Source: an uncultured Candidatus Bathyarchaeia archaeon
GTDB taxonomy: Archaea > Thermoproteota > Bathyarchaeia > Hecatellales > Hecatellaceae
Length of the DNA: 42,514 nucleotides
Direction of reading: 5' to 3'
NCBI GenBank assembly: GCA_964484995.1
Contig: CAZAHF010000003.1
Span: 4,400-46,913 of the forward strand
The position numbers and the translations under genes were made by a program. The notes under the pieces are model-generated. The model did no database searches, had not been told where the DNA came from, and saw nothing but the letters and a program-made list of their open reading frames with translations. Below are positions 2,813-39,758 of this stretch, one piece after another (position 1 is the first letter of the stretch; every line of letters starts with the position of its first letter).

Positions 2813-3814
2813 ATGCTTGTTAAACTAAAAAACTTTCTCAAAAAAACCCATGCAAAATATGGAATAATTTTTTGCCATCATAACGCAGATCCAGATGCAC
2901 TCTATTCTGCTAACGTTCTCCTAAAACTTTTAAGAAAAATTAGGCCAAAACTTAAATGTGAAATTTTTCCTGTTCAAGGTCCAAGTAAACTTTCAAAACT
3001 TTTAATGAGAAAGGTTCCTGTTAAGATGGTAGAGAAGCCAAAGCTTTGGAAGGCTGACTTTTTTGTTTTGGTTGATACAAGCACAATAAAACAGCTTGAT
3101 GAATGGGGTTTAAAAATTAAAAAGTCTCGTAAGCCCATTCTTGTTATAGATCACCATGCAATTCATCCTAAAACAAGAAAAATTGCTTCACTAATGATTG
3201 TTGATGTTAATGCACGTTCAACATGTGAAATTGTTTATAGAATTTGTCGTGAAGCAAAGTTTAGACTAACTAAAAAAGATGCTTTAGGTTTACTGTTTGG
3301 AATAATTTTTGAAACAAAAAATTTTCGTTATGCTTCAGCTAAAACCCTAAGACTCTCAGCTGAACTTTTAGAATATGGGTTAACTATTGAAGAAGCCTTA
3401 AAATCTATGGTTAAACCTGTGGAAAAACCTGAAAAAATAGCAAAACTTAAAGCTGCAAGCAGGCTTCAACTTTATAGGTTTAACGATTGGCTTATAGTTT
3501 TAACTCATGTTAGTTCTTATCAAGCTTCAGTCGCTAGAGCTCTTCTTGCTTTGGGTGGTGATGTGGCTGTTGTTGCTGGTGGAAAGAAAGGTGAGTTTAA
3601 AGTTAGTTTAAGAGCTACTCAAGAATTTTATGATAAAACAAAAATTCATCTGGGTAAGGATGTTGCTTTTGTTTTGGGTGAAAAATTTGGTGGTATGGGT
3701 GGCGGACATGCTACCTCGGCTGGAGTTAATGGTTATGGTAATTTTGAGGATGTTTTAAGGGAGACTTTAAAAGTTTTAAGGGAAAAAATTATGGTTAAAC
3801 CTGGTTTAAGATAG
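2813..3814 (+). CDS. DHH family phosphoesterase (DHH + DHHA1)
   Basis: HHNADPDAL, VDTS, IDHH and C-terminal GGGHATSAG motifs. Confidence 0.92.
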   Translation: MLVKLKNFLKKTHAKYGIIFCHHNADPDALYSANVLLKLLRKIRPKLKCEIFPVQGPSKLSKLLMRKVPVKMVEKPKLWKADFFVLVDTSTIKQLDEWGLKIKKSRKPILVIDHHAIHPKTRKIASLMIVDVNARSTCEIVYRICREAKFRLTKKDALGLLFGIIFETKNFRYASAKTLRLSAELLEYGLTIEEALKSMVKPVEKPEKIAKLKAASRLQLYRFNDWLIVLTHVSSYQASVARALLALGGDVAVVAGGKKGEFKVSLRATQEFYDKTKIHLGKDVAFVLGEKFGGMGGGHATSAGVNGYGNFEDVLRETLKVLREKIMVKPGLR

Positions 3815-3913: not shown

Positions 3914-4513
3914 TTGCAATATCTTCAAAAAGCTGTTGATGAGATAATTACTGCCCTTTCAAAGTGTTTAAAACATGTTGATATGAGGCAGGTTGAAAAG
4001 TTTATAGATATACTGTTAGACGCTAAAGAAAAAAATAAGAAAATTCTTGTTATGGGTGCTGGAAGAAGCGGTTTGGTTGGAAGAGCTTTTGCTATGAGAC
4101 TAATGCACTTAAACTTTAATGTTCATGTTATAGGGGAAACGATAACTCCCGCATTAGAAAAAGATGATATTCTTGTTGCAATTTCAGGTTCAGGTTCAAC
4201 AACCACAGTTGTGGCTGCTGCAAAAATAGCTAAAAAGGTTGGAGCAAAAATTTTAGCTATAACCTCCTATCCAAACTCACCTCTAGGAAGACTTTCAGAC
4301 CATAAAATAGTAATTCTTGGTCGAACAAAAATAACAGGTAAAAAAGACTATTTTTCACGTCAAATTTTGGGTGTTCATGAGCCTCTTGCACCGTTAGGCA
4401 CAATTTTTGAAGCCTCTACAAGTATTTTTCTTGATGCTTTAATAGTTGAGCTTATGCATAGGCTTGGAAAAACAGAAGCAGACCTAAAAAAAAGACATGC
4501 AACCATAGAGTAG
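3914..4513 (+). CDS. hxlB: 6-phospho-3-hexuloisomerase (SIS domain)
   Basis: GAGRSGLVGRAFAMRLMHL, GETITP, ISGSGST, PLGTIFE, C-terminal HATIE. Confidence 0.92.
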   Translation: MQYLQKAVDEIITALSKCLKHVDMRQVEKFIDILLDAKEKNKKILVMGAGRSGLVGRAFAMRLMHLNFNVHVIGETITPALEKDDILVAISGSGSTTTVVAAAKIAKKVGAKILAITSYPNSPLGRLSDHKIVILGRTKITGKKDYFSRQILGVHEPLAPLGTIFEASTSIFLDALIVELMHRLGKTEADLKKRHATIE

Positions 4514-4595
4514 CCTCCTATAAAAACAATAACTTTTTTAAGTTGCTAGGTATCTGCTTTTCTGTTAGTTAGAACATGTTAAAGGGAATGAGTGT

Positions 4596-6782
4596 ATGCC
4601 AAAACTTAAAACAACAGCTGAAATCTTAAAGATAGTCCATAACCTAGACCAGGTTAGAAATGCAGGTATTATAGCTCATGTTGACCATGGAAAAACAACC
4701 CTAACAGACTCTTTACTTTCAGCTGCAGGTTTGCTTTCACCTTCAGTTGCAGGTACAGCTTTAGCTCTGGACTATCTGGAGGAAGAGCAAAAAAGACAGA
4801 TGACAATTAAGGCTGCAAACATAAGCCTCTACTACGAAATTGACGGGAAACCTTACGTTATAAACCTTATAGATACACCTGGACATGTTGACTTCTCAGG
4901 TAGGGTTACAAGGTCTTTAAGAGCTATTGATGGTTGTGTGGTTGTTGTTGATGCTGTAGAAGAGGTTATGGTTCAGACAGAAACTGTTACAAGACAAGCC
5001 TTAGAAGAAAGAGTTAGACCTGTTTTATACATAAATAAGATAGATAGGTTAATCAAAGAGCTTAGACTTACCCCAAACCAGGTTCAAGAAAAACTTTTAA
5101 GAATAATCCGTGAATTCAACAATCTTATTGAGCTTTATGCTGAACCAGAATTTCGAGATAAATGGAAGGTAAGCCCTGCAACTGGAACTGTAGCTTTTGG
5201 TTCAGCAAAAGACCGATGGGGGCTTACAATTCAGTCTGCTCAAGAAAAGGGAATAAAGTTTTCAGATATAGTTTCAGCTTACCAAGAGGGAAGAGTACAA
5301 GATCTTGTTAAAATCGCACCGTTACATGAGCCTATTCTAGATATGATTATTAGACATATACCATCTCCACCTATAGCTCAAAAGTATAGGATACCCAAAA
5401 TTTGGCGTGGAGATCTTTCAAGTGAAGTAGGTAAAGCCATGTTAAACTGCGATCCAGACGGGCCTCTTGTTATGTGTATCACAAATGTTGTTGTGGATCC
5501 TCAGGCTGGTGTTGTTGCTACCGGCCGACTTTTCTCAGGAACCGTAAAAGCGGGAGATATTGTTAGGCTTATAGGTGCTAGAGATGATTGCAGAATCCAG
5601 GAAGTATGTATTTATATGGGTCAGTTTAGAGAAGTTGTTGGTTCACTTCCAGCAGGTAATATCCCCGCTTTGCTTGGCTTAGATAAGGCTAGAGCAGGTG
5701 AAACGATTTCCTCTTTAAGAGATACGATACCGTTTGAACAGCTTCAGTATGTTAGTGAACCTGTCGTAACAATTGCTATTGAACCTAAACATAGTAAGGA
5801 CCTGCCCAAACTTATCGACTTTTTAAGAAAGCTTTCACTTGAAGACCCAAACCTTGTGGTAAAAATAAACGAGGAAACAGGTGAATATCTGATTTCAGGT
5901 ATGGGACAGCTTCACTTAGAAATAGCAACAACATGGATTCAGAAAGCTGGACTAGAAATTGTAACCTCTAAACCGATAGTTCTTTATAGGGAAACTGTAC
6001 GAAAAGAAGGCCAGGTTTTTGAGGGTAAATCCCCAAACAAACATAACAGAATCTACATGAAAGTTGAGCCTTTAGAACCTGAAATTATTGAACTTATAAA
6101 GAAGGGGGAACTCTCCGACTATACACCACGTCATCAAGTTGCAAAAATTTTAAGAGAACATGGTTGGGAGACTGATGAGGCTAGAGGTGTATGGAGAATA
6201 GATGAGCATTGTAACATACTTACAGATGTAACCAAGGGAATTCAAAGACTGGACGTGGTTAAAGACTCTATTATCTCAGCTTTTAACTGGAGTATTGAAG
6301 AGGGCCCATTAGCCTATGAAACCATTAGAGGTGTGAAGGTAAAACTTGTTGACGCACAAATCCATGAAGACCCTGTACACACAGGACCAGCCCAAATAAT
6401 GCCTGCAACACGTAGATCGCTTTATGCTAGTTTTCTTTCAGCAAACCCAACTTTACTTGAACCTATTCTAAAGGTTACTGTAAAAGTTCCACCTGAACAA
6501 GTTGGAAATGTTACAAAAATAATAGTTGGTAAGCGTGGTAAGGTAGTTTCTCTTGAACAAAAAGAACATATTATGCATATAATAGGCGAGATTCCTACAG
6601 CAGAAACATTTGACCTTTCAGAGCTTATGAGAAGTGCAACTGCTGGAAAAGCATTTTGGGGAACAGAATTCTTAAAATGGGAGTTTGTACCAGCCTCTAT
6701 GGTAAACCAGCTGATTAGAGAAATTAGAAAACGTAAAGGTTTATCACCAGAACCGCCAACCGTAGAGGACTTCATAGAATAA
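4596..6782 (+). CDS. fusA: Elongation factor 2 family GTPase (variant; probable aEF-2 paralog)
   Basis: 728 aa; AHVDHGKTT, DTPGHVDF, NKID; switch I reads RQMT instead of RGIT; diphthamide loop reads HEDPVHTG instead of HxDxxHRG. Confidence 0.95.
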   Translation: MPKLKTTAEILKIVHNLDQVRNAGIIAHVDHGKTTLTDSLLSAAGLLSPSVAGTALALDYLEEEQKRQMTIKAANISLYYEIDGKPYVINLIDTPGHVDFSGRVTRSLRAIDGCVVVVDAVEEVMVQTETVTRQALEERVRPVLYINKIDRLIKELRLTPNQVQEKLLRIIREFNNLIELYAEPEFRDKWKVSPATGTVAFGSAKDRWGLTIQSAQEKGIKFSDIVSAYQEGRVQDLVKIAPLHEPILDMIIRHIPSPPIAQKYRIPKIWRGDLSSEVGKAMLNCDPDGPLVMCITNVVVDPQAGVVATGRLFSGTVKAGDIVRLIGARDDCRIQEVCIYMGQFREVVGSLPAGNIPALLGLDKARAGETISSLRDTIPFEQLQYVSEPVVTIAIEPKHSKDLPKLIDFLRKLSLEDPNLVVKINEETGEYLISGMGQLHLEIATTWIQKAGLEIVTSKPIVLYRETVRKEGQVFEGKSPNKHNRIYMKVEPLEPEIIELIKKGELSDYTPRHQVAKILREHGWETDEARGVWRIDEHCNILTDVTKGIQRLDVVKDSIISAFNWSIEEGPLAYETIRGVKVKLVDAQIHEDPVHTGPAQIMPATRRSLYASFLSANPTLLEPILKVTVKVPPEQVGNVTKIIVGKRGKVVSLEQKEHIMHIIGEIPTAETFDLSELMRSATAGKAFWGTEFLKWEFVPASMVNQLIREIRKRKGLSPEPPTVEDFIE

Positions 6783-6907: not shown

Positions 6908-8149
6908 ATGAGTGAGTATGTTTATGATCCAAGAAGAGTTCATGGTCAAGATGGTGTTGACTGGCAAGAGAGAGTTAACTTTGAACGTCTTAGAAAAGAG
7001 AGATTAGAAAGAGCAAGAAGTATGATGAAAAAACATGGGCTTGGAGCTTTAATCTGCTTTAACGGTGAAAATATTAGATATATTACTAGTACATGGCAGG
7101 GAAATTGGAAGGCAAACATTTTTGTTAGGTATTGTGTTCTTCCAGAAAACGGTGAACCAGTACTTTTTGAAACAGTAGGAGCAGATATGGAGTGTGCAAT
7201 TATAGATGCACCTTGGCTTAAAGGAAGAATAAAACCAGCAATAACATGGGTTTGGTCAGGCCCTGCTCAACCAGTCTTAGTTAAAAAGATGGCTGAAAGC
7301 ATAAAAAATGTTCTTAAGGAAAATGGTGTTGCTCAAGAAAAGGTAGGTTTAGATGTGTTTGACTGGGTTTCACGTCAAGCTTTAGTTGATGCTGGGTTAA
7401 ACATTGTTAACGGTTGGCCATGTATGATTGAAGCAAGACAGATAAAAACAAGAGACGAGTTAGAGCTTTTAAAACAGTCAGCAACCATAGCTGGATGTGC
7501 TTTTGCAAAAATTCGTGATGAATGGTTAAAGCCAGGAGTAAGAGAATGTGATATTGTAGCTAATTATACTAAGTTTCTTTTAGAAAATGGTTTTGAGTAT
7601 GTTCCAGCTTTAATTTGTGCTTCTGGAAGAAACACAAATCCTTATCGTCGTTGGAGTACTGATAAAATAATTCAGGATGGAGATCTTGTAATCATAGATA
7701 TTGCAGGTGCGGGTCCATGTGGATACTTCTGTGATTTTGTCCGAACCTTTAAATGCGGCAAAAGTAAACCAACAGAAGAAGAAAAAGAAGTATATAGAAA
7801 ATGTTGGGAACCTTTAAAAGCAGCTATAGAAGCCTTTAAACCTGGAGCAACAACAAAAGATGTTGCTGAAAAGTTTCCAGAGTATGATGATGATAAATAT
7901 GGTACATGTAGTCTTTTCCAGTTTGGACATAGCATAGGTCTAAGCCTCTATGAGGGTATGTGGATATCTAGAGGGTACTCCCTAGAATATCCTGAGGAAA
8001 TAAAGCAGAATATGTGTTTCTCTGTTGAAACCTATGTTGGCGGACCAAAATATAAGCAGGGAGTAAGAATAGAACAAAGCATATTTGTTACAGATACCGG
8101 ATGCGAAATTTATACAACATTTCCGTTAGAAGAAGAATTTTTAGAGTAA
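6908..8149 (+). CDS. M24 (pita-bread) family metallohydrolase, Xaa-Pro peptidase/creatinase-like
   Basis: Creatinase-like N-domain (RLERARSMM...NIRYIT); metal ligands IDIAG, CDFVRT, GHSIG, SVETY, RIEQ. Confidence 0.9.
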   Translation: MSEYVYDPRRVHGQDGVDWQERVNFERLRKERLERARSMMKKHGLGALICFNGENIRYITSTWQGNWKANIFVRYCVLPENGEPVLFETVGADMECAIIDAPWLKGRIKPAITWVWSGPAQPVLVKKMAESIKNVLKENGVAQEKVGLDVFDWVSRQALVDAGLNIVNGWPCMIEARQIKTRDELELLKQSATIAGCAFAKIRDEWLKPGVRECDIVANYTKFLLENGFEYVPALICASGRNTNPYRRWSTDKIIQDGDLVIIDIAGAGPCGYFCDFVRTFKCGKSKPTEEEKEVYRKCWEPLKAAIEAFKPGATTKDVAEKFPEYDDDKYGTCSLFQFGHSIGLSLYEGMWISRGYSLEYPEEIKQNMCFSVETYVGGPKYKQGVRIEQSIFVTDTGCEIYTTFPLEEEFLE

Positions 8150-8226: not shown

Positions 8227-8928
8227 ATGGTTAGGATGGAGACTGTTAAAGTTTTTGTTGATTTTAGAGAGAAAGATTCTGGTGTTCCATCTTTACTTTC
8301 AAAGTTAAGTGTTAATGTTGTCTACAAAAATTTGACTGTTGGAGACTATATTTTACCTAACAATTTAGCTGTTGAAAGGAAGAGTGTTGAAGATTTTCTT
8401 TCTTCCATGCTTTCAGGTAGACTTTTTGATCAGGCTTATAGGTTAGCTGAAGCTTACCCGATACCAATTTTTGTGGTTGAAGGAAATCTTCAAGATATAC
8501 TAGAAACATTCTCTAAACCTAAGGCAGTTTGGGGGGCTTTAGCTTCTCTTTCAATCCGTTATAGTATACACCTGTTTTTTACATCGAATATTCAACAAAC
8601 AGCTGAACTTTTAAGTGTTTTAGCCCACCAATCTTTAAAACAAAAGCCTGTTGAACCTATTATTAGAGAAAGAAGAAAAATTAGGAGTTTAGGTGAGTTT
8701 CAGCTTTATGTTGTTTCCTCCTTACCGGGGGTTGGATTAAAGCTTGCAGACCGTATGCTTAAAAAGTTTAAGACTGTTAGAGGAGTTTTCCAAGCTTCAA
8801 AAAGAGAGTTGATTCTTGTTGAGGGTTTAGCTAAAAGTAAAATAGATAAGATATGTGAACTTCTTGATACACCCTATAAGCCTCCTGAAACAAGTTTAAC
8901 CTACCAAAAACTTTTAGAAGAAACCTAA
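8227..8928 (+). CDS. xpf: XPF/ERCC4 structure-specific endonuclease (short crenarchaeal type)
   Basis: VDFRE, GDY, VERKSVEDF nuclease motifs plus C-terminal HhH2 (LPGVGLKLA); no helicase domain. Confidence 0.92.
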   Translation: MVRMETVKVFVDFREKDSGVPSLLSKLSVNVVYKNLTVGDYILPNNLAVERKSVEDFLSSMLSGRLFDQAYRLAEAYPIPIFVVEGNLQDILETFSKPKAVWGALASLSIRYSIHLFFTSNIQQTAELLSVLAHQSLKQKPVEPIIRERRKIRSLGEFQLYVVSSLPGVGLKLADRMLKKFKTVRGVFQASKRELILVEGLAKSKIDKICELLDTPYKPPETSLTYQKLLEET

Positions 8929-8929: not shown

Positions 8930-9817
8930 ATGACTGTTAAAAAACTTTCAAGATTTAACTCTCCTAAATGGGGTTTTTGCACCTGCCCCCCAAAATATAA
9001 CATAAACCCTTACCTTGGAAGATGTGGACATGGTTGTGTTTACTGTTACGCTGTAAAGTTTCCGTCTTTTGTTGGCCCTGTTAAGCCAAGGTTAAATCTT
9101 GCTAAAGATGTTTTTAGGATGGTGGCTAACACTAAACCAAAACTGCCTGTTATGCTTAGTGACTCAACAGACCCATATCAGCCTATAGAAAAGGATTTAA
9201 GGTTAACAAGAAAATGTTTAGAAGCCTTAACTAAACATGGTTTCCCTGTTTTAATTGTTACAAAGTCAGATCTTGTTGTTAGAGATATAGACCTACTAAA
9301 GAAGACAAGAAGTGTTGTTTCTTTAACTATAACAACTCTTAAAGCTGAAATTACAAGACTAATTGAGCCTAATGCACCAAGCCCTGAAAAAAGAATAAGA
9401 GCTATCCAGTTTATTGTAGGTAAAGGTATCCCCGTTGTAGCTAGGATAGACCCTATAATCCCGTTTCTAAATGACGATGAAAAAGACTTTAGACATCTTG
9501 TTTCAACTCTTAGTAGTATAGGTGTAAAACAGGTTACAGTTTCAACTCTAAAACCTGTTAAAGGCTTCTTTACTCGACTAGAAAAAATTAAGCCTACACT
9601 CTCAAAAAAGCTGAAAAAGCTTTATGAAAATGGAAAGTGGATTGTTGGCTATAAATATCTTCCAGAAGACTTTAGATTTAAAATTATTAAAAAGCTTAGG
9701 TCTGTAGTTTTAGACCATAATTTAGAGTTTGCTTCCTGTAGAGAAGGTTTCCCTCAGCTTAACACAACAATTTGTGATGGAACAGCATACTGTCAGATTC
9801 AGGCTAGATTAGAGTAA
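8930..9817 (+). CDS. Radical SAM protein, SPL/COG1533-like
   Basis: INPYLGRCGHGCVYCYA (CxxxCxxC), SDSTDPYQPIE, IVTKSDLVVRDIDLL. Confidence 0.88.
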   Translation: MTVKKLSRFNSPKWGFCTCPPKYNINPYLGRCGHGCVYCYAVKFPSFVGPVKPRLNLAKDVFRMVANTKPKLPVMLSDSTDPYQPIEKDLRLTRKCLEALTKHGFPVLIVTKSDLVVRDIDLLKKTRSVVSLTITTLKAEITRLIEPNAPSPEKRIRAIQFIVGKGIPVVARIDPIIPFLNDDEKDFRHLVSTLSSIGVKQVTVSTLKPVKGFFTRLEKIKPTLSKKLKKLYENGKWIVGYKYLPEDFRFKIIKKLRSVVLDHNLEFASCREGFPQLNTTICDGTAYCQIQARLE

Positions 9818-10289: not shown

Positions 10290-11279
10290 ATGGCTGCTAT
10301 TGCTAAAGCTCCAGCAAAAATAATTCTTTTAGGTGAACATTTCTGTGTTCATGGAGCTCCAGCTATAAGTATGGCTATAAACCTATATGCAAAAGTTAAA
10401 GTTGAAAAATGGAAAGAAGAAGGATTGTATATTTCCTCAAAAAATTTTGGTGTTTCAGCTGTATACCAAAATAAGGGTTTTTTAGTTAAGGAGGGTGATA
10501 TGGAGGAAGCTAAGAGGATTTTAAATCCTATAAGGATAGCTGTAGAGTCAACGTTAAAAAATAAAGGTTTAACTTTTAAGGGTTTAAAGGTTGAAGTTGA
10601 TTCTGAAATTCCTGTTGGGGTTGGACTTGGTTCTTCTGCAGCTATAACTGTTGCGACAATAGCGGCAACAGCTAAACATTTTGGTTTTAACCTTCCAAAA
10701 GAAGAGGTTTGTTTTTTGGCTTATGACTCTGAACGTTATATACATTTTAATCCTTCTGGTGTAGACCAGACAACCTCAACTTATGGTGGAATTATTCTTT
10801 ATAGGGTAAGTTCACCTGTTAAACATTTAAAACCTTTAAAACACCCTGTTTTTGTTATTGGAAATACTGGTATTAGAAGAGTTACTGGTGACTTTGTAAA
10901 AAAGGTTGGAAAACTAAAGGAAGAAAGGAAGGAGCTTTTAGAAAGCCTACTAAAAACAGCTGAAAACCTTGTTTTAGATGGTGTTAAAGCGTTAGAAAGT
11001 GGAAACGTAACCTTATTCGGAGAACTTATGAATAAAAACCATGAACTACTCTCAAAGATTGGTGTTTCTCATGAAAAACTTGAGTTGTTTGTGGATACAG
11101 CTCGTAAGGCTGGTGCTTTAGGCGCAAAACTTACTGGTGGTGGAGGTGGGGGTTGTATGATAGCCTTGGTTAAACCTGAAAAACTGGTTGAGGTTGCTAG
11201 GGCTATTAGAGAGGTTGGAGGAGAAATCTATATAGTTGAGACAGATTGGATGGGTGTTCAAAGCTGGGTTGAAATCTAG
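10290..11279 (+). CDS. mvk: Mevalonate kinase
   Basis: APAKIILLGEH, PVGVGLGSSAA (GHMP motif), PSGVD, KLTGGGGGGC. Confidence 0.93.
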   Translation: MAAIAKAPAKIILLGEHFCVHGAPAISMAINLYAKVKVEKWKEEGLYISSKNFGVSAVYQNKGFLVKEGDMEEAKRILNPIRIAVESTLKNKGLTFKGLKVEVDSEIPVGVGLGSSAAITVATIAATAKHFGFNLPKEEVCFLAYDSERYIHFNPSGVDQTTSTYGGIILYRVSSPVKHLKPLKHPVFVIGNTGIRRVTGDFVKKVGKLKEERKELLESLLKTAENLVLDGVKALESGNVTLFGELMNKNHELLSKIGVSHEKLELFVDTARKAGALGAKLTGGGGGGCMIALVKPEKLVEVARAIREVGGEIYIVETDWMGVQSWVEI

Positions 11280-11284
11280 AAAAA

Positions 11285-12097
11285 GTGGTGGTGTTAAGGC
11301 TGGCTTCTTTTTTAAAGATTCTTAAACTTGGAGGTTCTGCTATAACAGATAAAACAAAACCTTTTTCGGTTAGAAAAGATGTTGTTGATAGTTTAGCTAG
11401 GGAGGTTTTAGATGCAAAACCTAAACGTTTAATTATTATTCATGGAGGAGGCTCTTTTGGACATCCTCTAGCAAAAAAGTATAGGCTTGTAGAAGGCTTT
11501 AAAAATAAAACTCAACTTACTGGTTTTGCTGAAACTAGAAGAGTAATGATGATGCTTCACAAAATTATTGTTGACACTTTTACTTCTCACGGTGTAAACG
11601 TTGTTTCTGTCCCACCTCTAGCCTTTATAAGAACAAGAAACAGACGTATAAGCTTCTTAGATAAAACAGTTTTAAGCAGGCTTTTAGGTTTAGGTTTAAC
11701 TCCAATTCTTTTTGGGGATGTTGTGCTGGATGAAAAGCTTGGTTTTACGATTCTTTCCGGAGACCAGATTGCCGCAAAGTTAGCTGTTGTTTTACAGGCT
11801 GAGAGAATAGTTTTAGCAACAGATGTTGACGGTGTTTTTACTTCAAATCCAAAAACAGATCCAAATGCAAGATTACTTCGTCAGTTAAGCCTAAGTAAAC
11901 TAGGAAAAATTGTTAACGAAAAATCTAAACCTGAATTGTCTATGGATGTTACAGGAACAATGATTGGAAAACTTAAAGAGATGGTGCCTGCTGTAAACAG
12001 GGGTGTTAAAGTTTTTGTTGTTAACGCATTAAAAAGTGGAAGAGTTTCCCAAGCATTAAAAAGCTCTAAGATTGAGGGAACAACATTAAAACCTTAA
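11285..12097 (+). CDS. ipk: Isopentenyl phosphate kinase
   Basis: LKLGGSAITDK, HGGGSFGH, GDVV, SGDQI, DVTGTM; directly follows mvk. Confidence 0.92.
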   Translation: MVVLRLASFLKILKLGGSAITDKTKPFSVRKDVVDSLAREVLDAKPKRLIIIHGGGSFGHPLAKKYRLVEGFKNKTQLTGFAETRRVMMMLHKIIVDTFTSHGVNVVSVPPLAFIRTRNRRISFLDKTVLSRLLGLGLTPILFGDVVLDEKLGFTILSGDQIAAKLAVVLQAERIVLATDVDGVFTSNPKTDPNARLLRQLSLSKLGKIVNEKSKPELSMDVTGTMIGKLKEMVPAVNRGVKVFVVNALKSGRVSQALKSSKIEGTTLKP

Positions 12098-12528
12098 GCT
12101 TTCTTCTTAACCTCTACAGTCCCATCAGAAAAAATTTTTACCCAATCTCCAGTTCTAATAACCTCTAAAGGATTCTTATTTAACCTATCTACAAGTGGAA
12201 TGTTTGCTAAAGCACATCCAACAGCAATAATTGCCTCAGTTTTTATGTTTAATATGGCTGATGGGGCTGTACCATGTTTAGCCATGGCATAAAGCACATA
12301 AGAACCTACACTACTTCCCTTTCCATAGGGAAAAACAAGAACTTTTCTAGCTACGTTTTTCCCGTTTAACTCATGGTTTTTCTCAATAATCAAACCAGTT
12401 TTAGGGTTAACTCCACCAAAAAAAGATATAGGTTGACTTGTTACTAATGCTTCTCCCTCAACCTCTTTTGAAAGAAGGTTTCTACCCTTTAGAAGAATTA
12501 ACATTAAACGGTAATCCTCCTTAAACAT
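12094..12528 (-). CDS. Phosphomevalonate dehydratase small subunit (AcnX swivel, DUF126)
   Basis: ISFFGGVNPKTG, FPYGKGSSVGSY, IAVGCALANIP; start may be the ATG at 12504. Confidence 0.9.
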   Translation of the reverse strand: MFKEDYRLMLILLKGRNLLSKEVEGEALVTSQPISFFGGVNPKTGLIIEKNHELNGKNVARKVLVFPYGKGSSVGSYVLYAMAKHGTAPSAILNIKTEAIIAVGCALANIPLVDRLNKNPLEVIRTGDWVKIFSDGTVEVKKKA

Positions 12529-13709
12529 TCAAGTGTGTTTTCAAGTTTAACCTTTAACCTGTTTGTTGACGGTAGATAATGAGCAGCCTTACAAGAATCT
12601 GTATAAACAACTTCTAAACCCAACCTCTCTAAAGGTGAGACAACCATGCATGTATCACATAAAACTAATCCTCCAGCTTTTTCAACTAATCTCACATAAC
12701 CAAGCTTTTTTGCTTTTTCATAAATAAGTCTTGAAGTAAAAATCCAAAGCCTAGCTTTAGGCTTAACCTTTTTTCCTCTTAAAAAAGCTGCAACTTCTCT
12801 AAGTTGACTAAGACTATAGTGAGGACAGCCAAGAAAAACAGCTTCACACCGTTCATAAGCCTCAGACAAATCTTGAATTGTTTGTTTAACTTCCCCTAAG
12901 CCAACCTCAAACTTTTCAATGTCCTTTAAATTATCCTCAGAAAAAAATTTTGCTTCTGGGGTTAAGTTTTCCACATGATATAAGGCTATGGCTCCTGCTG
13001 AAGCTAAACCAGCACCTAAGACCTTTAACCAATCCTTACTTACTAAACCTAAACCTGAAAAAAATGGAACTTTTTCAGGAAAATTTTTTCCAACAAAGTA
13101 GCCTAAAGCGCTGATTTCTAGTTGATTTGAAGGCTTAAATTTAACCTTAACCCTAACATTTGGTTTCCGGTTTTCCTCTAGAAGATAACCATAATATGGT
13201 GTTCTTCCCGTAACTGCACTAGCTAAAGCTGATAAACCGCTTTCCCTATTAGTTTTTGCTCCTAAAACAGAGTTAGCATAAACCGTTGCCGAAGACTCAG
13301 CCCAAGCAACATAATCCCCAAATTTTGGTTTATTCCCTATTAGGTAGGGTATGCATGAACAGCTTAAACTTACACCCATTCTTTTAAAGGCTTTAAGCAC
13401 CTCAGACTGTTTTTTAGCAAAATCTTTGTCCAGACCAGTCTTTTTCCATCTTTTTCTATCCATACCTGAAGGGTTTAAAGTTGTTTTAACTCTCACTCTA
13501 ACATTTTCCTCAGCAAAACCTTTAAGAAGCTCTAAACCTGGTTCTCCAATGTTTTTGTAGGAGACACCTGAAACATGACAACTTTTAACTTTAACCATCT
13601 TTTCAGCTTCAAAAAGTTCTCCTAAAACAACAAGCAGCCTCATACATTTAGCTAACCCTTCACCATACTCACCGTTAAACATAAGTTCTTCTTCACGGGT
13701 TAAATACAT
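12504..13709 (-). CDS. Phosphomevalonate dehydratase large subunit (AcnX, DUF521)
   Basis: MYLTREEE, HVSGVSY, SCIPY, WAESSA, LGCPH, DTCMVV. Confidence 0.92.
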   Translation of the reverse strand: MYLTREEELMFNGEYGEGLAKCMRLLVVLGELFEAEKMVKVKSCHVSGVSYKNIGEPGLELLKGFAEENVRVRVKTTLNPSGMDRKRWKKTGLDKDFAKKQSEVLKAFKRMGVSLSCSCIPYLIGNKPKFGDYVAWAESSATVYANSVLGAKTNRESGLSALASAVTGRTPYYGYLLEENRKPNVRVKVKFKPSNQLEISALGYFVGKNFPEKVPFFSGLGLVSKDWLKVLGAGLASAGAIALYHVENLTPEAKFFSEDNLKDIEKFEVGLGEVKQTIQDLSEAYERCEAVFLGCPHYSLSQLREVAAFLRGKKVKPKARLWIFTSRLIYEKAKKLGYVRLVEKAGGLVLCDTCMVVSPLERLGLEVVYTDSCKAAHYLPSTNRLKVKLENTLECLRRITV

Positions 13710-13735
13710 AAAACGTTAAACCTCAATAGCTTCTT

Positions 13736-15076
13736 TTACCCTTTAAGCCTTCTAAGTAGTTTTTTAACTTTGTCATTTTTAGGTATGTTTACCTTTTCAA
13801 ATTTTTCTGGAGGCTTAGAAAGAGGTTTGGTTGCGTCAAACCCAACTTTTGTTGTTGCTCCTGTTTCCTGATTTGCTGACGGATCTAAGGTTGAACCTCT
13901 AACACCCCTAACCACAACCAGATCTTTATCTCCTTGAAACCTTGTAGCTAAAGCCCACTCAACCTCAGTAAGATTTTCAATGTTTATGTCTTCATCAACC
14001 ACAACAACATGTTTTAAGCTTGGATGACCTGTAAAAGCAGCCAAAATAGTGTTTTTACCATCCCCTTCCAACTGTTTTTTTATGCTTATAAAGGCATGAA
14101 GCCATCCACAACCACCATCTGTAAGCTTAACAGCCTTAACTGTAGGCACAACCTCTTTCACACTTTCCCATATTTTTGCTTCTCTAAACAACCCCATGAA
14201 TATTTTATGTTCGGAGCCAGCCGGAAGCAAAGCCTGATAAATACAGTCTTTTCTACGCATAACACTTAAAAGTCTAACAACGGGCTGAAGCCTAACAGCA
14301 TCATAGGTTTGGGTTAAATCTGCAAAAGGCCCCTCCTGAACATTCTCATCTAAAACTATTTCACCCTCAAAAACAATTTCAGCATCAGCTGGAACATTTA
14401 AATCAACATTTTCACATCTTGTAAGCCGTAGTTTACCGTTAAGTATAGCGTTAGCAACCCAGTATTCACTTAAGCCAAACGGTGCTGGTGAAGCGGCTGC
14501 TAACAATACTGCAGGGTGAACCCCAATAGAAATAGCAATCTCCAGTGTTTTTTTCCCTTCCTCCTTAGCCATCTCACAAAGCTTGTAAAGGTGACGTGGA
14601 ACAATCCTAATTGCAAGCTTATCTTCACCTAAAACCTGAAACCTATGAACAGAAACATTTTCAATTTTTCCATCTGGACTTTTAGCTGAAACAACTGATG
14701 AAGTTATATATGGTTTTTCTTTTTCATAGTGGGTTAAGATAGGAAACTTTTTTAGATTTGGTTTTTCTATAACCTCCTTTACTTCACCGTTATTATCCAC
14801 AACTGGTTTTATTGGGTTTTTTAATGCATTAAGAATTTTTTTATAGAGATTTTCTTGGTCTATATTTAAAGCCATACAAATCCTTTCTTTATCTCCACAA
14901 ACACCTGCAACAACAGGGAAATTTGATTCTTCAATTTTTTCAAAAAAAACTGCTTTTTTAGCTTCAAACTCTCTAATTATTGCTGCAGCTTCAAATTTTG
15001 CTGAAACCTTATCCTTAACCTTAACAAGCTTTTTTTTGTTTTTAAGTTGGCTAATAAATTCTCTTAAGCTAGCCAT
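13736..15076 (-). CDS. UbiD-family decarboxylase, probable anhydromevalonate phosphate decarboxylase
   Basis: RIVPRHL, EGPFADLT, VVVVDEDINI, RGSTLDPS; co-oriented with both AcnX subunits next to mvk/ipk. Confidence 0.88.
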   Translation of the reverse strand: MASLREFISQLKNKKKLVKVKDKVSAKFEAAAIIREFEAKKAVFFEKIEESNFPVVAGVCGDKERICMALNIDQENLYKKILNALKNPIKPVVDNNGEVKEVIEKPNLKKFPILTHYEKEKPYITSSVVSAKSPDGKIENVSVHRFQVLGEDKLAIRIVPRHLYKLCEMAKEEGKKTLEIAISIGVHPAVLLAAASPAPFGLSEYWVANAILNGKLRLTRCENVDLNVPADAEIVFEGEIVLDENVQEGPFADLTQTYDAVRLQPVVRLLSVMRRKDCIYQALLPAGSEHKIFMGLFREAKIWESVKEVVPTVKAVKLTDGGCGWLHAFISIKKQLEGDGKNTILAAFTGHPSLKHVVVVDEDINIENLTEVEWALATRFQGDKDLVVVRGVRGSTLDPSANQETGATTKVGFDATKPLSKPPEKFEKVNIPKNDKVKKLLRRLKG

Positions 15077-23924: not shown

Positions 23925-24013
23925 AAGTACCGAGACAAAACGTTAAAAGCTAGCTGCTACACAATTATTATATCCAAAAAACCTTATATTCTACATTTTT
24001 GGTTGGTGTAAAA

Positions 24014-24997
24014 ATGCCAAAACTTCCAGATGTACCTCTAACTGAAGAAGAACTTATTGACATGTACCAGAAAATGCTTACCATAAGAATGTTTGAGGAA
24101 AAAGCCTATGAACTTTTTACAAAAGGCTACATTCCAGGGGCAATTCATAGTTCTGTAGGTCAAGAAGCTGTTGCTGTTGGAGGTATTGCAGCCATAAGAA
24201 AAGAAGACTATGTTTTAGGTTCTCATAGGGGACATGGCCACTGTATTGCTAAGGGTGGAGATCCGAAAAGGATGATGGCTGAACTTTTCGGTAAGGCAAC
24301 AGGTTATTGTAAGGGTAAAGGCGGCTCTATGCATATCACCGACCCTAAGGTAGGACATCTAGGAGCAATAAGTATAGTTGGCGCCCAAATACCAATAGCT
24401 GTTGGTGTAGGCTTATCGATTAAGCTAAGAAAAACAGACCAAGTTTGTCTTTGTTTTTTTGGGGATGGTGCAGCTAACCAAGGAACTTTTCATGAAGGGT
24501 TAAATCTCGCATCTCTATGGAAGCTTCCAGTAATATTTATTTGTGAAAACAATCTTTATGCAGTAACAGTTCATGTTTCTAAATCTACCTCAGTAGAGAA
24601 TATAGCTCAAAGAGCTGTAGCATACAATATGCCTGGCGTAGTTGTTGACGGTATGGATGTTATAGCAGTCTATAAGGCTGCTTCTGAGGCTGTTAAAAAA
24701 GCAAGAAATGGGGAGGGACCTACACTTATAGAATGTAAAACCTACAGGTATTACGGCCATTCTAGAGGCGATCCTCCCTACGGTCCCTATAGAAAAAAAG
24801 AAGAATGGGAGGAGTGGAAAAGAAGAGACCCAATACCAAGGTTTAGAAGCATCCTAATAGAAAACAATGTTTTAACCGAGGAGGATGATAAGAGAATCCA
24901 GCAGAATGTTGTTAACCTTATTGAAGAAGCTGTTAAATTTGCTTTTGAAAGTCCAAATCCTTCACCTGAGGATGCTTTTAAAGATATTTATGTGTAG
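24014..24997 (+). CDS. TPP-dependent dehydrogenase E1 alpha, copy 1 (acetoin/pyruvate DH family)
   Basis: GQEA, SHRGHGH, GKGGSMH, GDGAANQGTFHE...ENN, YRYYGHS; ATG at 24014 preferred over track start 23999 (GGTG SD upstream). Confidence 0.93.
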   Translation: MPKLPDVPLTEEELIDMYQKMLTIRMFEEKAYELFTKGYIPGAIHSSVGQEAVAVGGIAAIRKEDYVLGSHRGHGHCIAKGGDPKRMMAELFGKATGYCKGKGGSMHITDPKVGHLGAISIVGAQIPIAVGVGLSIKLRKTDQVCLCFFGDGAANQGTFHEGLNLASLWKLPVIFICENNLYAVTVHVSKSTSVENIAQRAVAYNMPGVVVDGMDVIAVYKAASEAVKKARNGEGPTLIECKTYRYYGHSRGDPPYGPYRKKEEWEEWKRRDPIPRFRSILIENNVLTEEDDKRIQQNVVNLIEEAVKFAFESPNPSPEDAFKDIYV

Positions 24998-25006
24998 GTG
25001 TGGTTT

Positions 25007-25984
25007 ATGGTAAGAGAAATAGCCTATTTTGAGGCTCTTAGAGAAGCTTTAAGAGAAGAAATGTTAAAGGATGAAACTGTTTTTGTTATGGGGGAAGACA
25101 TAAAGCTTGGATACATTTTTGGTGTTACAAGAGGACTTGCTGAAGAGTTTGGTGAAGAACGTGTTAGAGACACACCAATATCAGAAAATACTCTTGTAGG
25201 AGCTGGTCTTGGTGCAGCAATAACAGGAACAAGACCTGTTGTTGAAATTATGTTTGCAGACCTTCTATGTTTAGCTATGGATCAGCTGGTAAACGAAATT
25301 GCAAAACTAAGATACATTACCGGCGGCCAAATTGAAAAAATACCTTTAGTTGTAAGAACACCTTTAGGTGTTTGGAAAGGTTATGGTGCAACCCACTCTC
25401 AGTCTCTTGAATCCTGGTTTGTTCATGTTCCAGGTTTAAAGGTTGTTATCGTGTCAACCCCCTACGATGCTAAAGGATTACTAAAATCTGCGATAAGAGA
25501 TGACAATCCTGTCCTTTTCTTTGAACATAAATCTCTTTACAGGATGACAGGACCTGTTCCAGAGGAAGAATATCTAATACCGCTTGGAAAAGCCGATATT
25601 AAAAGAGAAGGTGAAGATGTAACTATCATCAGTTATGGGTTAATGTTACATCGCACCCTTTCAGCTGCAAAAAAGCTTGAGGAGGATGGGATAAACGTTG
25701 AGGTTGTTGACCCCAGAACTCTTTTTCCTCTTGACCTTAAAACAATTTTAGATTCTGTCAAAAAAACTGGAAGACTTGTAATTGTGGAGGAAGACTGTAA
25801 AACTGGAGGGTTTGGTGCTGAGATTGCAGCTAGGGTTGTTGAGGAAGCCTTTGACTTTTTAGATGCCCCTATTAAACGAGTTGCAACTCCAGATGTACCA
25901 ATACCATTTAGTCCTGTTCTTGAGGAAGCTGTTCTTCCAAAAGAAGAAGATATAGTTAAAGCTGTAAAGGAAGTTGTTTTATAA
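25007..25984 (+). CDS. E1 beta, copy 1
   Basis: DTPISE, EIMFADL, GATHSQS, FFEHK, VVDPRTL; ATG 25007 preferred (GGTGTGG SD). Confidence 0.93.
   Translation: MVREIAYFEALREALREEMLKDETVFVMGEDIKLGYIFGVTRGLAEEFGEERVRDTPISENTLVGAGLGAAITGTRPVVEIMFADLLCLAMDQLVNEIAKLRYITGGQIEKIPLVVRTPLGVWKGYGATHSQSLESWFVHVPGLKVVIVSTPYDAKGLLKSAIRDDNPVLFFEHKSLYRMTGPVPEEEYLIPLGKADIKREGEDVTIISYGLMLHRTLSAAKKLEEDGINVEVVDPRTLFPLDLKTILDSVKKTGRLVIVEEDCKTGGFGAEIAARVVEEAFDFLDAPIKRVATPDVPIPFSPVLEEAVLPKEEDIVKAVKEVVL
25658..25832 (+). repeat. Direct repeat copy A (shared with 31304-31478)
   Basis: Exact runs of 65 bp (25658-25722), 43 bp (25740-25782) and 21 bp (25812-25832) at constant offset 5646. Confidence 0.92.
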
Positions 25985-26005
25985 GCTTTAAAAAATATTT
26001 TTGGT

Positions 26006-27232
26006 TTAGAGAACTCTATCTAAAAGTTCTGTAACATCATACATAGACATTTTTGAGTTCAAATTTTTTATAGCGTCTGTAAGGTTTCTATAGCAGAACG
26101 GACATGAGGAGACTAAGACATTACATCCTGTTTTTTCAGCTTCACGTATTCTTTCAGCAGCTAACCCTAATGACTGTTCTGTAAAACCTGCTCTTAATCC
26201 TCCTCCTGCTCCACAACAAAAAGCATTTAGTTTAACTCTATCCATCTCAACAAGCTCAACACCAGGTATATTTTTTAGAATTTCTCTTGGCTGATCTGCA
26301 ACCATAGCGTTTTTGCCAAGATGAGCTAGATGTCTTACAAGATGACATGGGTCATGGTAGGTTACTTTCATCTTTAATTCTTTTGTAATTTTAAGTTTAC
26401 CCTCCTTAATTAGTTGACTTAAAAATTCTGTGATGTGTAGAAGGTTAAAGTTTAGTTTGCCAAAAATTTCTTGGTAATCGGTTTTAAATGTTCGATAACA
26501 TCCTGCACATGAGAAAACAACAGTTTTAGCTCCAACCTTCTCTATTGCTTCAATGTTATGTTTAGCTTGTTCTTCACCAATTTCACGTGCACCAACTCTA
26601 AACAATGGGGAGCCACAACACCATTCCTCTAACCCAAGAATTGTAAAGTTTACTCCAAGCTTTTTTAATATGCTAACAGTTGCTTTAGCTATGTTTTTTT
26701 GACGGTAAGATGAGGTGCATCCAACATAGTAGACTATATCCGCGTTTTCCATAGGTTTAATATTAAATTCTTCAGGAAGCCAATCAAGCCTCTTATTATG
26801 AGGCTCTAGGTATGGGTTATGGTTTTGTTTTGTCCACTCAGCAAACCGTTTATGTTGAGGTAAACCAAAACCCATGGAAAATAGGTCTGCCCTAAAAGCC
26901 TCATATATTCCCACATGGTCTATATGGTCTTTAACATAACATTTATCCCAACAGTTTCGACATGTAGAACACATATAGAATATTTCAGAAATTCTTTTTC
27001 CCGTCTCCTCATTTATAGGGAGAAGTCCTTCTAAAACTGCTAAGGCTATTTCTACCTTACCTCTAGCCTCAAAGCTTTCAAACGGGTGAGCCTCCGTGAT
27101 ACGTAAGGGACATACACCATCCACATTATCTCTAAAACGAGTTTGGTCTCTACAATAACCACACTTTATACAGCGGTAAAGGTCTTTTTCATATTTTTTT
27201 AAATGTTTTAGTTGAGCTGCTGTTTCACCCAA
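26006..27232 (-). CDS. GlcF/HdrD-like (Fe-S)-binding protein with two CCG domains
   Basis: CIKCGYC...CP, CSTCRNCWDKC, CCGSP, CAGC, HDPCH, CCGAGGG, CPFC. Confidence 0.92.
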   Translation of the reverse strand: MGETAAQLKHLKKYEKDLYRCIKCGYCRDQTRFRDNVDGVCPLRITEAHPFESFEARGKVEIALAVLEGLLPINEETGKRISEIFYMCSTCRNCWDKCYVKDHIDHVGIYEAFRADLFSMGFGLPQHKRFAEWTKQNHNPYLEPHNKRLDWLPEEFNIKPMENADIVYYVGCTSSYRQKNIAKATVSILKKLGVNFTILGLEEWCCGSPLFRVGAREIGEEQAKHNIEAIEKVGAKTVVFSCAGCYRTFKTDYQEIFGKLNFNLLHITEFLSQLIKEGKLKITKELKMKVTYHDPCHLVRHLAHLGKNAMVADQPREILKNIPGVELVEMDRVKLNAFCCGAGGGLRAGFTEQSLGLAAERIREAEKTGCNVLVSSCPFCYRNLTDAIKNLNSKMSMYDVTELLDRVL

Positions 27233-27235
27233 ACT

Positions 27236-28675
27236 TTAAACCTCCATTGGAAGCATCATCATTCCAGGGATTAGAATTCCGTTTGGGTCTAACGTCTTCT
27301 TTAAAGCCTTTAATGTTTCATAGTATTGTTTAGACCAGTGGCGTGCAACCAGCTCTCCAACAACACTTCCAAGCCAATAATGGATTCCACCATCCTTAAC
27401 AAGCACCTCAAAACCTTCCCTCCACATTTTTCTAACAACCTCACGTGCACCTGGGATATCGTCAAGCCAATAGATAAGAAGCATAGCATCAACCACATTC
27501 CAACTAACAACAAAATATAGGACATCAACAGGTTCTATCTGATACTTTTCACATTCACCTTTATACTTTTCAAAAAGCTGTTTCATCAAGTTATGAGGTC
27601 TAACATAATCATAAATTGGAACTTTTGCACATAGAGAAGCCCATCTTTGACCTTTAGGTCCTGCTCTTGGCCACCACTCAAAAATTCTTGGATAATAGTA
27701 ATATTTTAAAAATTCAGTACCAATTTCTTTTACACCAGTCTTTTTAACCATACTATTTACGTATTCAGCTTCTGTATCAGCTAGTTTTTCGTTTGATGCT
27801 TCAATAACCACGTGAAGAGTATACTCTTTACCTAACAAAGATTTAAAACCAGCTTTTCCAAGCGACTCATTAAGCCATGAAAGAAACCCCATTATTTCAG
27901 TTGGAATATGGGTTTTTGAAACTTCATAGGTTGCGTCAAGCAGCTGTTTAAGGTCTTTTGCTTCATAAGACAAAAATCTGACAGCTTCAGGGAAGGGATA
28001 AATCTTCATAACCGCCTGAGTTTTAACACCAAAAACTCCACAATCTCCAAGAAAAAGACCGGTAAGGTCAGGGCCTATCCCATATCTTATAAGCTTTTTT
28101 GCATGGGGATAAGCTCCAGAACCAGTATTTATTATCTCTCCTGTTGGCAGGACAACCTCTAGACTTTTAACGTTTTCACTTACAGTTCCATATTTTGCAC
28201 ATCCATAAGCTAAACTATGGTGGGATAACCCTCCACCAATAGTTGCTGAGGCTCCACTACCAGGACCAAGAGAACCAACTCTCCAACCCTTTTTTCTAAG
28301 TTCCGAGTAGAGTTTAGCCCATGTTGCACCACACTGAACAGTAACAGTCATCTCTTTTTCATTAATTTCAACTATATCACTCATTCTTGTAAGGTCTAAA
28401 ACTATTGCACCTTTCTGGTATTTTGTAAAATAAGCAGGACAAGTTCCTCCTCCTCTAGGAACAACAGACTTCTTAACCTTATTAGCCTCTTTAACTATTT
28501 CAGCTACCTCTTCAGTTGTTTTTGGGCGAACAACCATATCCGGTATAACTGGCGGTTCAGGGCTTATGTCGTTTGCATAAGCAATAAGATCAGGAAGCGA
28601 GGTTGTTACATATTTTTCCCCTACTTTTGAAGCAATAATTTGAACAAACTCGTCTAACATTTTCTCACTAGACAT
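27236..28675 (-). CDS. FAD-linked oxidoreductase (GlcD/VAO superfamily)
   Basis: RPKTTEEV, PRGGGT, ATIGG, LEVVLPTGEI, GPDLTGLF, C-terminal LDPNGILIPG. Confidence 0.9.
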   Translation of the reverse strand: MSSEKMLDEFVQIIASKVGEKYVTTSLPDLIAYANDISPEPPVIPDMVVRPKTTEEVAEIVKEANKVKKSVVPRGGGTCPAYFTKYQKGAIVLDLTRMSDIVEINEKEMTVTVQCGATWAKLYSELRKKGWRVGSLGPGSGASATIGGGLSHHSLAYGCAKYGTVSENVKSLEVVLPTGEIINTGSGAYPHAKKLIRYGIGPDLTGLFLGDCGVFGVKTQAVMKIYPFPEAVRFLSYEAKDLKQLLDATYEVSKTHIPTEIMGFLSWLNESLGKAGFKSLLGKEYTLHVVIEASNEKLADTEAEYVNSMVKKTGVKEIGTEFLKYYYYPRIFEWWPRAGPKGQRWASLCAKVPIYDYVRPHNLMKQLFEKYKGECEKYQIEPVDVLYFVVSWNVVDAMLLIYWLDDIPGAREVVRKMWREGFEVLVKDGGIHYWLGSVVGELVARHWSKQYYETLKALKKTLDPNGILIPGMMMLPMEV

Positions 28676-28677
28676 TT

Positions 28678-29481
28678 TTACCTTCCCTTAAACTCTGCTT
28701 TTCTCTTCTCTAAGAAGGCTTTGCATCCTTCAATACGGTCTTCAGTTGCAAACATTATTGTGTCAGCTTCACTCTCGTAGGCTAATCCTGTATCTAAATC
28801 TGTTTCTAAGCCTCTAACTATAGCGGCTTTAGCTAAAGCTAAAGCAATAGGGCTTTTACTCTTAAGTTTTTCAACAAGCTCATTTACAGCTTCATCAAGT
28901 TTATCTGGTGGAACAACCTTATTTACAAGACCTATTCTTTCAGCCTCTTTTGCACTAATTCTTTCTCCAAGCAAAATTAGCTCCATACCTTTTATTTTTC
29001 CAACTAAACGTGGAATTCTCTGGGTTCCACCCCAACCCGGAAATATTCCAAGATTAATTTCCGGTACACCAAATTCAGCGTTCTCAGAGGCAATTATAAA
29101 GTCGCATGCAGCTGCTATTTCAAGTCCTCCACCAAGACAATAACCGTTAACAGCAGCAATAACAGGTTTATCAAGTTTCTCAATTAGACGGTGCACCTCA
29201 TAACCAATATTTCGGAAAAATTTTCTAGCCTTAATTGGATGATCCATCACATCCGGTAAGAATACTTTTATGTCTGCACCTACACAAAATGCTCTACCTT
29301 GACCTGTTATAACAACAACTCTTACACTGTCATCTTGCTGAGCATCCCATAAAGCATCTTTTAAGGCTTTAGCAACATCAAGGTCTATAACCCAAAGTCC
29401 TTTAGGACCTCTATTAAAAACTATTTTTGCAACACCATCTTTTTTCTCATAAATTATTGGAGGTTGTTTTTCTTCTCCCAT
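28678..29481 (-). CDS. Enoyl-CoA hydratase (crotonase family)
   Basis: [32 protein letters not shown] (both catalytic Glu present); ATG 29481 preferred over GTG 29496. Confidence 0.93.
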
Positions 29482-29671
29482 AAAATTCTCCCTCACACAG
29501 GCTAAAGACGACTTTTACTGTTTTATGATAAGTTTTTAGATTATTAACTTTTTCTTAAGACTAGGAAAACTTTACAAAAATTAAACTATAAAGGTTTATT
29601 TATGAAAAAGTTAAATACTCATCATCAAGAGTAAAGTTTGTAACATAAAAATTAGAACTGGAGGATGTTCT

Positions 29672-30625: not shown

Positions 30626-30640
30626 TGGAGGTGAGTATGT

Positions 30641-31621: not shown

Positions 31622-31664
31622 GTAAACCCTGCCCCGGTTTAAAATTGTTTGGAGGAAGAAAATC

Positions 31665-38427: not shown

Positions 38428-38445
38428 CCCTTTTTTGGTGGTTAG

Positions 38446-39729: not shown

Positions 39730-39758
39730 CAGAAAAAAGGGGAAGAGGTGTTTGGTTC

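Follow-up and report, generated by a model that had tools for sequence, protein, structure and literature searches.

Coupled substitutions at the domain IV tip of a probable housekeeping elongation factor 2 from the Hecatellales (Bathyarchaeia)

The EF-2 gene and its locus

We analyzed a 42,514-nucleotide stretch of contig CAZAHF010000003.1 (the window, at its full length) from a heat-loving, uncultured bathyarchaeon of the family Hecatellaceae, order Hecatellales; this bathyarchaeal order is known from geothermal sites (PMC9635834). On the plus strand, positions 4596–6782 form a stop-free open reading frame (ORF) that encodes archaeal elongation factor 2 (aEF-2), a five-domain translocase GTPase of 728 amino acids. 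The protein scored 905 bits against the aEF-2 equivalog model TIGR00490 (cut-off, 738.45), with residues 5–719 matching model positions 4–720 of 720, and contained the Pfam domains GTP_EFTU, D2, EFG_III, EFG_IV, and EFG_C, that is, the five-domain architecture of EF-2 and EF-G. The closest solved structures were archaeal (8hl1, 917 bits, E = 9e-275; 5h7j, 783 bits), and the nearest database proteins, at 76–92% identity, bore the source labels Candidatus Hecatellaceae, Candidatus Hecatella orcuttiae, and Bathyarchaeia; an identical protein was also observed on ENA and JGI metagenomic contigs. We propose that the window gene is very probably an ordinary housekeeping aEF-2 translocase, orthologous by both position and phylogeny to the canonical EF-2 that other Thermoproteota carry at this locus, and not a specialized paralog.

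The GTPase motifs were complete, including the switch I Thr and the catalytic His: G1 (P-loop) AHVDHGKT at residues 27–34 (positions 4674–4697), G2 (switch I) R67-Q68-M69-T70 (4794–4805, codons AGA CAG ATG ACA) with the Thr that binds Mg and the gamma-phosphate retained, G3 DTPGH with catalytic His97 (4872–4886), and G4 NKID at residues 147–150 (5034–5045). Both decoding-centre loops of domain IV were likewise kept. Loop 2, the role of which has been described previously (PMC6143161), aligned as SPNKHN at residues 479–484 (6030–6047), with its tRNA-contacting Lys intact, and the diphthamide loop, of the form HxDxxH, read H590-E-D-P-V-H595-T596-G597 (6363–6386), with H590, D592, the modifiable H595, and G597 all present. 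Within this loop (HEDPVHTGPAQ), the H595-T596-G597 triplet is encoded by CAC ACA GGA (6378–6386), and the exchange of Arg for Thr is an AGA-to-ACA type single-base difference. V554 (6255–6257) aligned with the residue that pairs with R702 in a salt bridge, E660 in Drosophila numbering. A first-pass annotation of this DNA had reported the RQMT and HTG residues and their coordinates exactly, and had overlooked the third change, E660 to V554. All of these features lie on the plus strand, as does a putative archaeal TATA box, TATAAAAA, about 70 nt 5′ of the start codon (4519–4526). An antisense ORF of 117 amino acids (6422–6775, minus strand) falls entirely within the EF-2 gene and is most likely spurious.

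The gene is embedded in a run of plus-strand genes. Upstream are genes for a Brix/Imp4-like protein (1221–1778), Pcc1 (1775–2035), prefoldin beta (PfdB, 2404–2766), a DHH phosphoesterase (2813–3814), and an SIS/6-phospho-3-hexuloisomerase (HxlB, 3914–4513); downstream are genes for an M24 peptidase (6908–8149), an XPF/ERCC4 nuclease (8227–8928), and a radical SAM protein that is SPL/DUF1848-like (8930–9817), the latter two of which are syntenic in Hecatella. Synteny was determined by tblastn of the window neighbors against the collected loci, including those of the 80 best GTDB matches. The EF-2 genes of Ca. Hecatella orcuttiae (1.27-Mb contig) and of other Hecatellales were flanked by the same block as that in the window, and in one bathyarchaeote whose EF-2 lacks Arg after the diphthamide His (non-Arg type), the block runs on into the L37ae-exosome-SBDS-proteasome superoperon. 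More broadly, a Brix-PfdB-DHH-(XPF)-(SIS) arrangement immediately 5′ of EF-2 was found in Desulfurococcales, Acidilobaceae, Methanomethylicia, Nitrososphaeria, Methylarchaceae, and Bathyarchaeia of both Arg and non-Arg types. Because the window gene occupies the same locus as the canonical gene in these lineages, the two are indicated to be orthologous. No linkage to rps12 or rps7 was observed at the loci inspected for gene content, in agreement with the first-pass annotation, which had placed the gene outside an rpS12-rpS7 operon; its suggestion that PfdB-DHH-SIS marks the ancestral EF-2 locus of TACK archaea was borne out by the synteny. At the downstream side, three independent assemblies (two from ENA and one from JGI; loci L011, L012, L097, and L098) stop about 480 bp past EF-2, near window position 7260. 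This point lies within the M24 peptidase gene, and the window continues across it; there may be strain variation or a repeat here. Here and below, L-numbers denote loci and P-numbers homologous proteins, as labeled in our analysis.

Switch I and the coupled pair in domain IV

The first-pass annotation described RGIT as near-invariant in translational GTPases and the RQMT of the window gene as an altered switch I; for archaea, neither point withstood comparison. When window EF-2 was aligned with its 120 best homologs (121 sequences), RQMT was present in 116, including all 73 that carry the textbook HRG loop, Nitrososphaeria among them. With an unrelated query, the profile of an RRMT-type paralog, the canonical TACK EF-2 sequences among the listed matches (n = 94) read RQMT in 68 cases, RGIT in 22, RNIT in 2, and RMIT and REMT in 1 each. 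A scan of GTDB, biased in that one of its patterns contained RQM, detected RQMT EF-2 in Nitrosocaldus, Nitrososphaera, Nitrosopumilales, Methanomethylicia, Thermofilaceae, Thermosphaera, and Culexmicrobium, and RGIT in Aeropyrum, Acidilobaceae, and most Desulfurococcales. RQMT is the prevalent switch I in canonical Thermoproteota EF-2, and RGIT is not invariant in archaea; thus, RQMT, as the majority state of the phylum, carries no signal in the window gene. Every solved archaeal EF-2 structure carries RGIT, which may be the reason that this motif has seemed invariant. Within each of three bathyarchaeal EF-2 subgroups, RGIT and RQMT were seen to exchange as a two-residue unit (residues 68–69, window positions 4797–4802; homologs P0011, P0012, P0054, P0069, and P0115), and no RQIT or RGMT intermediate was present among the 121 aligned sequences, the absence of which suggests epistasis between residues 68 and 69. 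Rarer switch I states observed elsewhere were RNIT, RMIT, REMT, RLLT, RQLT, and RLMT.

The HTG triplet of the diphthamide loop was far more restricted. Among the 121 aligned sequences it was limited to window EF-2 and its 12 closest homologs, and the remainder read HRG (73) or HFG, HYG, HIG, or HCG (35). In EF-2, R702 is salt-bridged to E660, which lies on the adjacent loop (PMC6143161); the E660 equivalent, 41 residues before the diphthamide His, is Glu in eukaryotic representatives and V554 in window EF-2. Among the close homologs, R596 was accompanied by E or D at position 554 without exception (73/73), and any other residue at 596 by a non-acidic residue at 554 (48/48). In particular, T596 was paired with V554, whereas F, Y, I, or C at 596, the state of a wider group of Bathyarchaeia, was paired with Q554 (rarely H or S). 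Both the HTG loop and V554 were unchanging across all 13 members of the clade, which are themselves 76–92% identical. In the wider family (521 members of at least 600 amino acids, restricted to those keeping both loop histidines), position 554 was acidic in 262 of 276 sequences with Arg versus 1 of 59 without it, although these 596/554 counts are phylogenetically non-independent. The pairing recurred in sequences with a combination of Thr and Arg, such as P0303 (HEDPAHTG, Arg at −41, SLNALN), as described for the aEF-2 of Asgard archaea and Korarchaeota (PMC6143161).

Judged from these alignments, the HTG triplet is genuine and specific to the Hecatellales, always together with Glu to Val at 554, and the R702 and E660 equivalents behave as a strictly coupled pair, both members of which have been replaced in a sizeable group of Bathyarchaeia. 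This double exchange at the domain IV tip is fixed in the clade, and it has a published precedent (R to T, 2018). Window EF-2, with T596 and V554, lacks the Arg after the diphthamide His that is salt-bridged to E660; because the published canonical aEF-2 proteins of Asgard archaea and Korarchaeota lack it as well, this pair is typical of canonical aEF-2 and does not define it. Two further variants of the same region were noted. In Nitrososphaeria (Nitrosocaldus, Nitrosopumilales, and relatives; L064, L066, L071, L073, L074, L077, L078, L083, and L089), EF-2 reads H-R-T, Thr having taken the place of the Gly that stands two positions past the diphthamide His; in mammalian cells, diphthamide is not formed when this Gly is substituted. 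In some non-Arg bathyarchaeal EF-2 proteins (P0021 at L004, on a JGI 1.25-Mb contig, and P0082), the Lys of loop 2 is also lost (SPNGHN) and the diphthamide loop reads HTDPAHFG, a state one step closer to that of the Asgard-like EF-2.

Phylogenetic position, paralogs, and diphthamide modification

In a neighbour-joining tree (98 sequences, 725 columns, 100 bootstraps), window EF-2 was placed inside the HTG clade with a bootstrap of 100. This clade was nested within canonical bathyarchaeal EF-2, which in turn lay within a clade of Bathyarchaeia, Aigarchaeota, and Nitrososphaeria (100) and, more inclusively, within the canonical TACK clade (98). The branch of window EF-2 was as short as those of its Arg-type relatives, whereas all paralog families fell outside on long branches. 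The HTG and F/Y/I/C groups were recovered as sisters with weak support (bootstrap 42), and the loss of Arg may therefore have had one or two origins. The ratio of nonsynonymous to synonymous substitution (dN/dS) within the HTG clade was 0.041, from one usable within-clade pair; for the window gene itself, synonymous sites were saturated against every available relative. This ratio points to strong purifying selection on HTG-clade EF-2.

True EF-2 paralogs are nevertheless present in Bathyarchaeia, as the first-pass annotation had noted and as has been reported (PMC6143161). A search of 1.84 billion representatives, together with two paralog-profile searches (best 120 matches each), revealed at least four separate paralog families in Bathyarchaeia, all without the diphthamide His. 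The RKIT/SPNKQN family (P0127-like; P0125/P0127 and P0304–P0421) is very large, and several of its members bear the NCBI name "GTP-binding protein [Candidatus Bathyarchaeia archaeon]"; in P0125 and P0127, a deletion of about 20–30 residues was observed in domain IV. The other families are characterized by TPNKQN/HEDPKLHE, SINELN, and RRMT, with P0511 and P0532; P0452; and P0157, P0442, P0180, and P0443 as further representatives. The RRMT family comprises only four 90% clusters, and its member P0442 (L013) has a Cdc6-like gene on one side and SpoU/L10e genes on the other; the two paralog loci that were looked up were unrelated to the window locus. Two candidate associations of paralogs with the HTG clade were rejected: paralog P0306 and the HTG-type EF-2 P0003, considered to share one 9,452-bp contig, are on separate contigs that have this length in common but come from different assemblies, and the assembly of the RRMT family (P0157/P0442), GCA_037917685.1, considered to be from Hecatellales, matches no HTG-clade assembly looked up. 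In addition, a Hecatellales relative carries a 535-amino-acid GTPase with GTP_EFTU and domain 2 only, about 7 kb 3′ of EF-2 (L095, 19625–21232, minus strand); rather than an EF-2 paralog, this protein may be a factor of the SelB-like/aSelBL kind.

The divergent second EF-2 (aEF-2p) has been defined by three features, namely a lost H701, two domain IV loops that are no longer conserved, and long branches (Narrowe et al. 2018, PMC6143161). The suggestion that the window gene is of this type was not upheld: the diphthamide His and seven of the eight loop residues are kept, the SPNKHN loop and the GTPase motifs are intact, the TIGR00490 cut-off is passed, and the protein lies on a short branch in the canonical TACK clade (bootstrap 98–100) rather than in a separate long-branched one. 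In the Asgard and Korarchaeota genomes that bear aEF-2p, it is the canonical aEF-2 that shows R702 to T, with E660 to K or R (PMC6143161). Since R702T thus marks the canonical copy of dph-lacking, paralog-bearing lineages, HTG is a hallmark of the canonical copy and not of the paralog.

Several points weigh against the proposal of an ordinary translocase. The tree was built by neighbour-joining with a simple distance and not by mixture-model maximum likelihood, and the search for EF-2 copies covered the window and the locus flanks. Paralogs are frequent in Bathyarchaeia, and one bathyarchaeote, RBG_13_46_16b, possesses two copies, a TACK-type "potential paralog" alongside a canonical EF-2 that branches deeply, in a bathyarchaeal EF-2 pattern that was termed puzzling (PMC6143161); no later paper on this pattern was found in our literature search. 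P0523 (1.45-Mb contig, Candidatus Bathyarchaeales), P0534, and P0525 have a canonical type of domain IV (RGIT, SPNKHN, HExPVHRG, D554), yet the P0523 type was placed outside the canonical TACK clade, beside the paralog families; it may be what the earlier study described as a "deep-branching canonical" EF-2 in Bathyarchaeia (PMC6143161). Finally, losing a near-universal salt bridge could signal some functional shift.

One rival explanation is that a specialized second EF-2, either aEF-2p-like or of the 2018 "potential paralog" kind, occupies the ancestral locus while a gene elsewhere carries out routine translocation. The several paralog families, the second canonical-looking type (P0523/P0534), the two copies in RBG_13_46_16b, and the missing salt-bridge Arg are in its favor. 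However, none of the hallmarks of aEF-2p tested (loss of H701, loss of the SPHKHN loop, and accelerated evolution) was found, the dN/dS value is low, and sister lineages have Arg-type orthologs at the same locus; moreover, neither the window nor any of the 98 loci examined contained a second EF-2-like gene in its flanks or interior, and no assembly with two EF-2 loci was present among the 80 best GTDB matches. We thus consider a specialized second copy very improbable. The remaining explanations concern whether the translocase is modified. In one of them, which would be compatible with a housekeeping role, the Hecatellales, and perhaps all non-Arg Bathyarchaeia, have lost dph2, dph5, and dph6, and T596/V554 reflects a re-packing by which the loop compensates, a view already put forward for Asgard archaea and Korarchaeota. 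This agrees with the reported state of Asgard and Kor-1/3 lineages that bear paralogs and lack dph, whose canonical aEF-2 universally has Thr at R702 together with a changed E660, and with the failure to find Dph5 and Dph6 in two Bathyarchaeota metagenome-assembled genomes (PMC6143161), as well as with the joint exchange of both salt-bridge partners among the close homologs. No dph gene was detected in the window, in an upstream extension of about 10 kb, or around the EF-2 loci of related Hecatellales, although absence from the approximately 150 kb sampled in all has no bearing on the remainder of the genome; tblastn with Pyrococcus Dph5 (query checked against the PDB) on the window and all loci gave a single match, at an unrelated Thermoproteota locus (L084). 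On the other hand, most Bathyarchaeota possess dph genes (PMC6143161), window EF-2 has the loop 2 Lys and V554, unlike the Asgard and Korarchaeota proteins with Lys or Arg at that position, and H595, H590, D592, and G597 are strictly retained, although dph-lacking lineages retain them too. Loss of the dph genes therefore seems a serious but somewhat doubtful explanation, and that H595 is no longer modified is likewise a minority possibility.

Alternatively, the changes from Arg to Thr and from Glu to Val might be nearly neutral, compensated drift with no effect on modification or function, the protein being still diphthamide-modified, and to this we give about even weight. Position 596 accepts T, F, Y, I, and C in one group of Bathyarchaeia while the rest of the loop is fixed, and Nitrososphaeria have Thr at the residue that follows (G703), which implies that, for this part of the tree, the textbook motif understates how plastic the loop tip is. 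Against drift, the strict coupling to 554 and the fixation of each state within its clade argue for constraint, and the sole published precedent ties R to T to dph loss. A broader proposal, which we regard as tentative and rather unlikely, is that the joint loss of R702 and E660 is a signature of diphthamide-independent translocation that has re-arisen in a large group of Bathyarchaeia (T/V in the Hecatellales; F/Y/I/C with Q in the others), independently of Asgard archaea and Korarchaeota. If so, these Bathyarchaeia would have lost or be losing dph, and their many EF-2 paralog families would be tied to that loss.

If the window gene is an ordinary translocase, as we propose, it would function according to established EF-2 biology: GTP-bound EF-2 would dock at the ribosomal GTPase centre, domain IV would enter the A site, where the Lys of SPNKHN and the HxDxxH tip would touch the codon-anticodon helix, and GTP hydrolysis via His97 would power release. 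In window EF-2, the Arg-Glu clamp bracing the diphthamide loop would be swapped for a small, uncharged contact between Thr596 and Val554 with the His kept, and the loop and its modifiable His would still serve translocation. The EF-2 of this lineage would then be an ordinary gene that could be used as an ortholog in marker sets. More generally, the 596/554 pair is a cheap marker that can be read from alignments and scored against dph presence across archaeal genomes, relating salt-bridge loss to diphthamide loss, a question raised for Bathyarchaeota in 2018.

Three other gene clusters in the window were noted. Genes for mevalonate kinase, isopentenyl phosphate kinase, the large and small subunits of aconitase-X, and a UbiD-family decarboxylase are clustered at 10290–15076 and are syntenic in L095; we take this set to be the archaeal modified mevalonate pathway. 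The region 23999–35988 encodes two E1alpha/E1beta pairs, a lipoyl-domain E2, lipoyl synthase, a LipB/LplA-type ligase, and E3, which together make up a complete archaeal 2-oxoacid dehydrogenase complex and the genes for its lipoylation; the two E1 pairs are separated by genes for an enoyl-CoA hydratase and a pair of FAD/CCG oxidoreductases. A DapL-type lysine biosynthesis cluster (dapA, dapB, lysA, dapF, and LL-diaminopimelate aminotransferase) occupies 36594–41784.

Comparison with known EF-2 proteins

Compared with the solved canonical aEF-2 of Thermoproteota (ribosome-bound, PDB 8hl1–8hl4) and of Pyrococcus horikoshii (5h7j), window EF-2 is alike in length and in its five domains, aligns end to end without large gaps, and has the same G1–G4 motifs, SPNKHN, and HxDxxH; in relatives, the PfdB-DHH-...-EF-2 neighborhood is shared as well. 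It differs from them by RQMT for RGIT, by Thr for Arg after the diphthamide His, and by Val for Glu at the partner position. The canonical aEF-2 of those Asgard archaea and Korarchaeota that bear paralogs and lack dph genes (PMC6143161) resembles window EF-2 in having R702 to T beside a kept His, a correlated change at E660, and retained translocase features; however, it has Lys or Arg at E660 and has lost the loop 2 Lys, whereas window EF-2 has Val and SPNKHN and belongs to another phylum and clade. The aEF-2p proteins and the Bathyarchaeia paralogs (P0127-like with RKIT, P0511-like, P0452-like, and P0157-like with RRMT) share superfamily and domain order with window EF-2, and P0125 and P0127 show 46–49% overall identity to it with a well-conserved G domain, but in these paralogs the diphthamide His and its loop are absent, loop 2 is changed in most of them, the two loci looked up are other ones, and the branches are long and outside the canonical clade. 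Other Bathyarchaeia have an EF-2 of the non-Arg type, in which HFG, HYG, HIG, or HCG is combined with Q554; examples are P0051 on the complete genome CP070647.1 and P0021 on the 1.25-Mb JGI contig. Where window EF-2 has Thr and Val, these proteins have, respectively, an aromatic, aliphatic, or Cys residue and Gln, and their monophyly with the HTG clade is weakly supported (bootstrap 42); like window EF-2, they are canonical TACK-type proteins with RQMT in which Arg and Glu have been lost jointly, they share QRLD before position 554 with it, and some of them are encoded at the same locus (L004 and L018).

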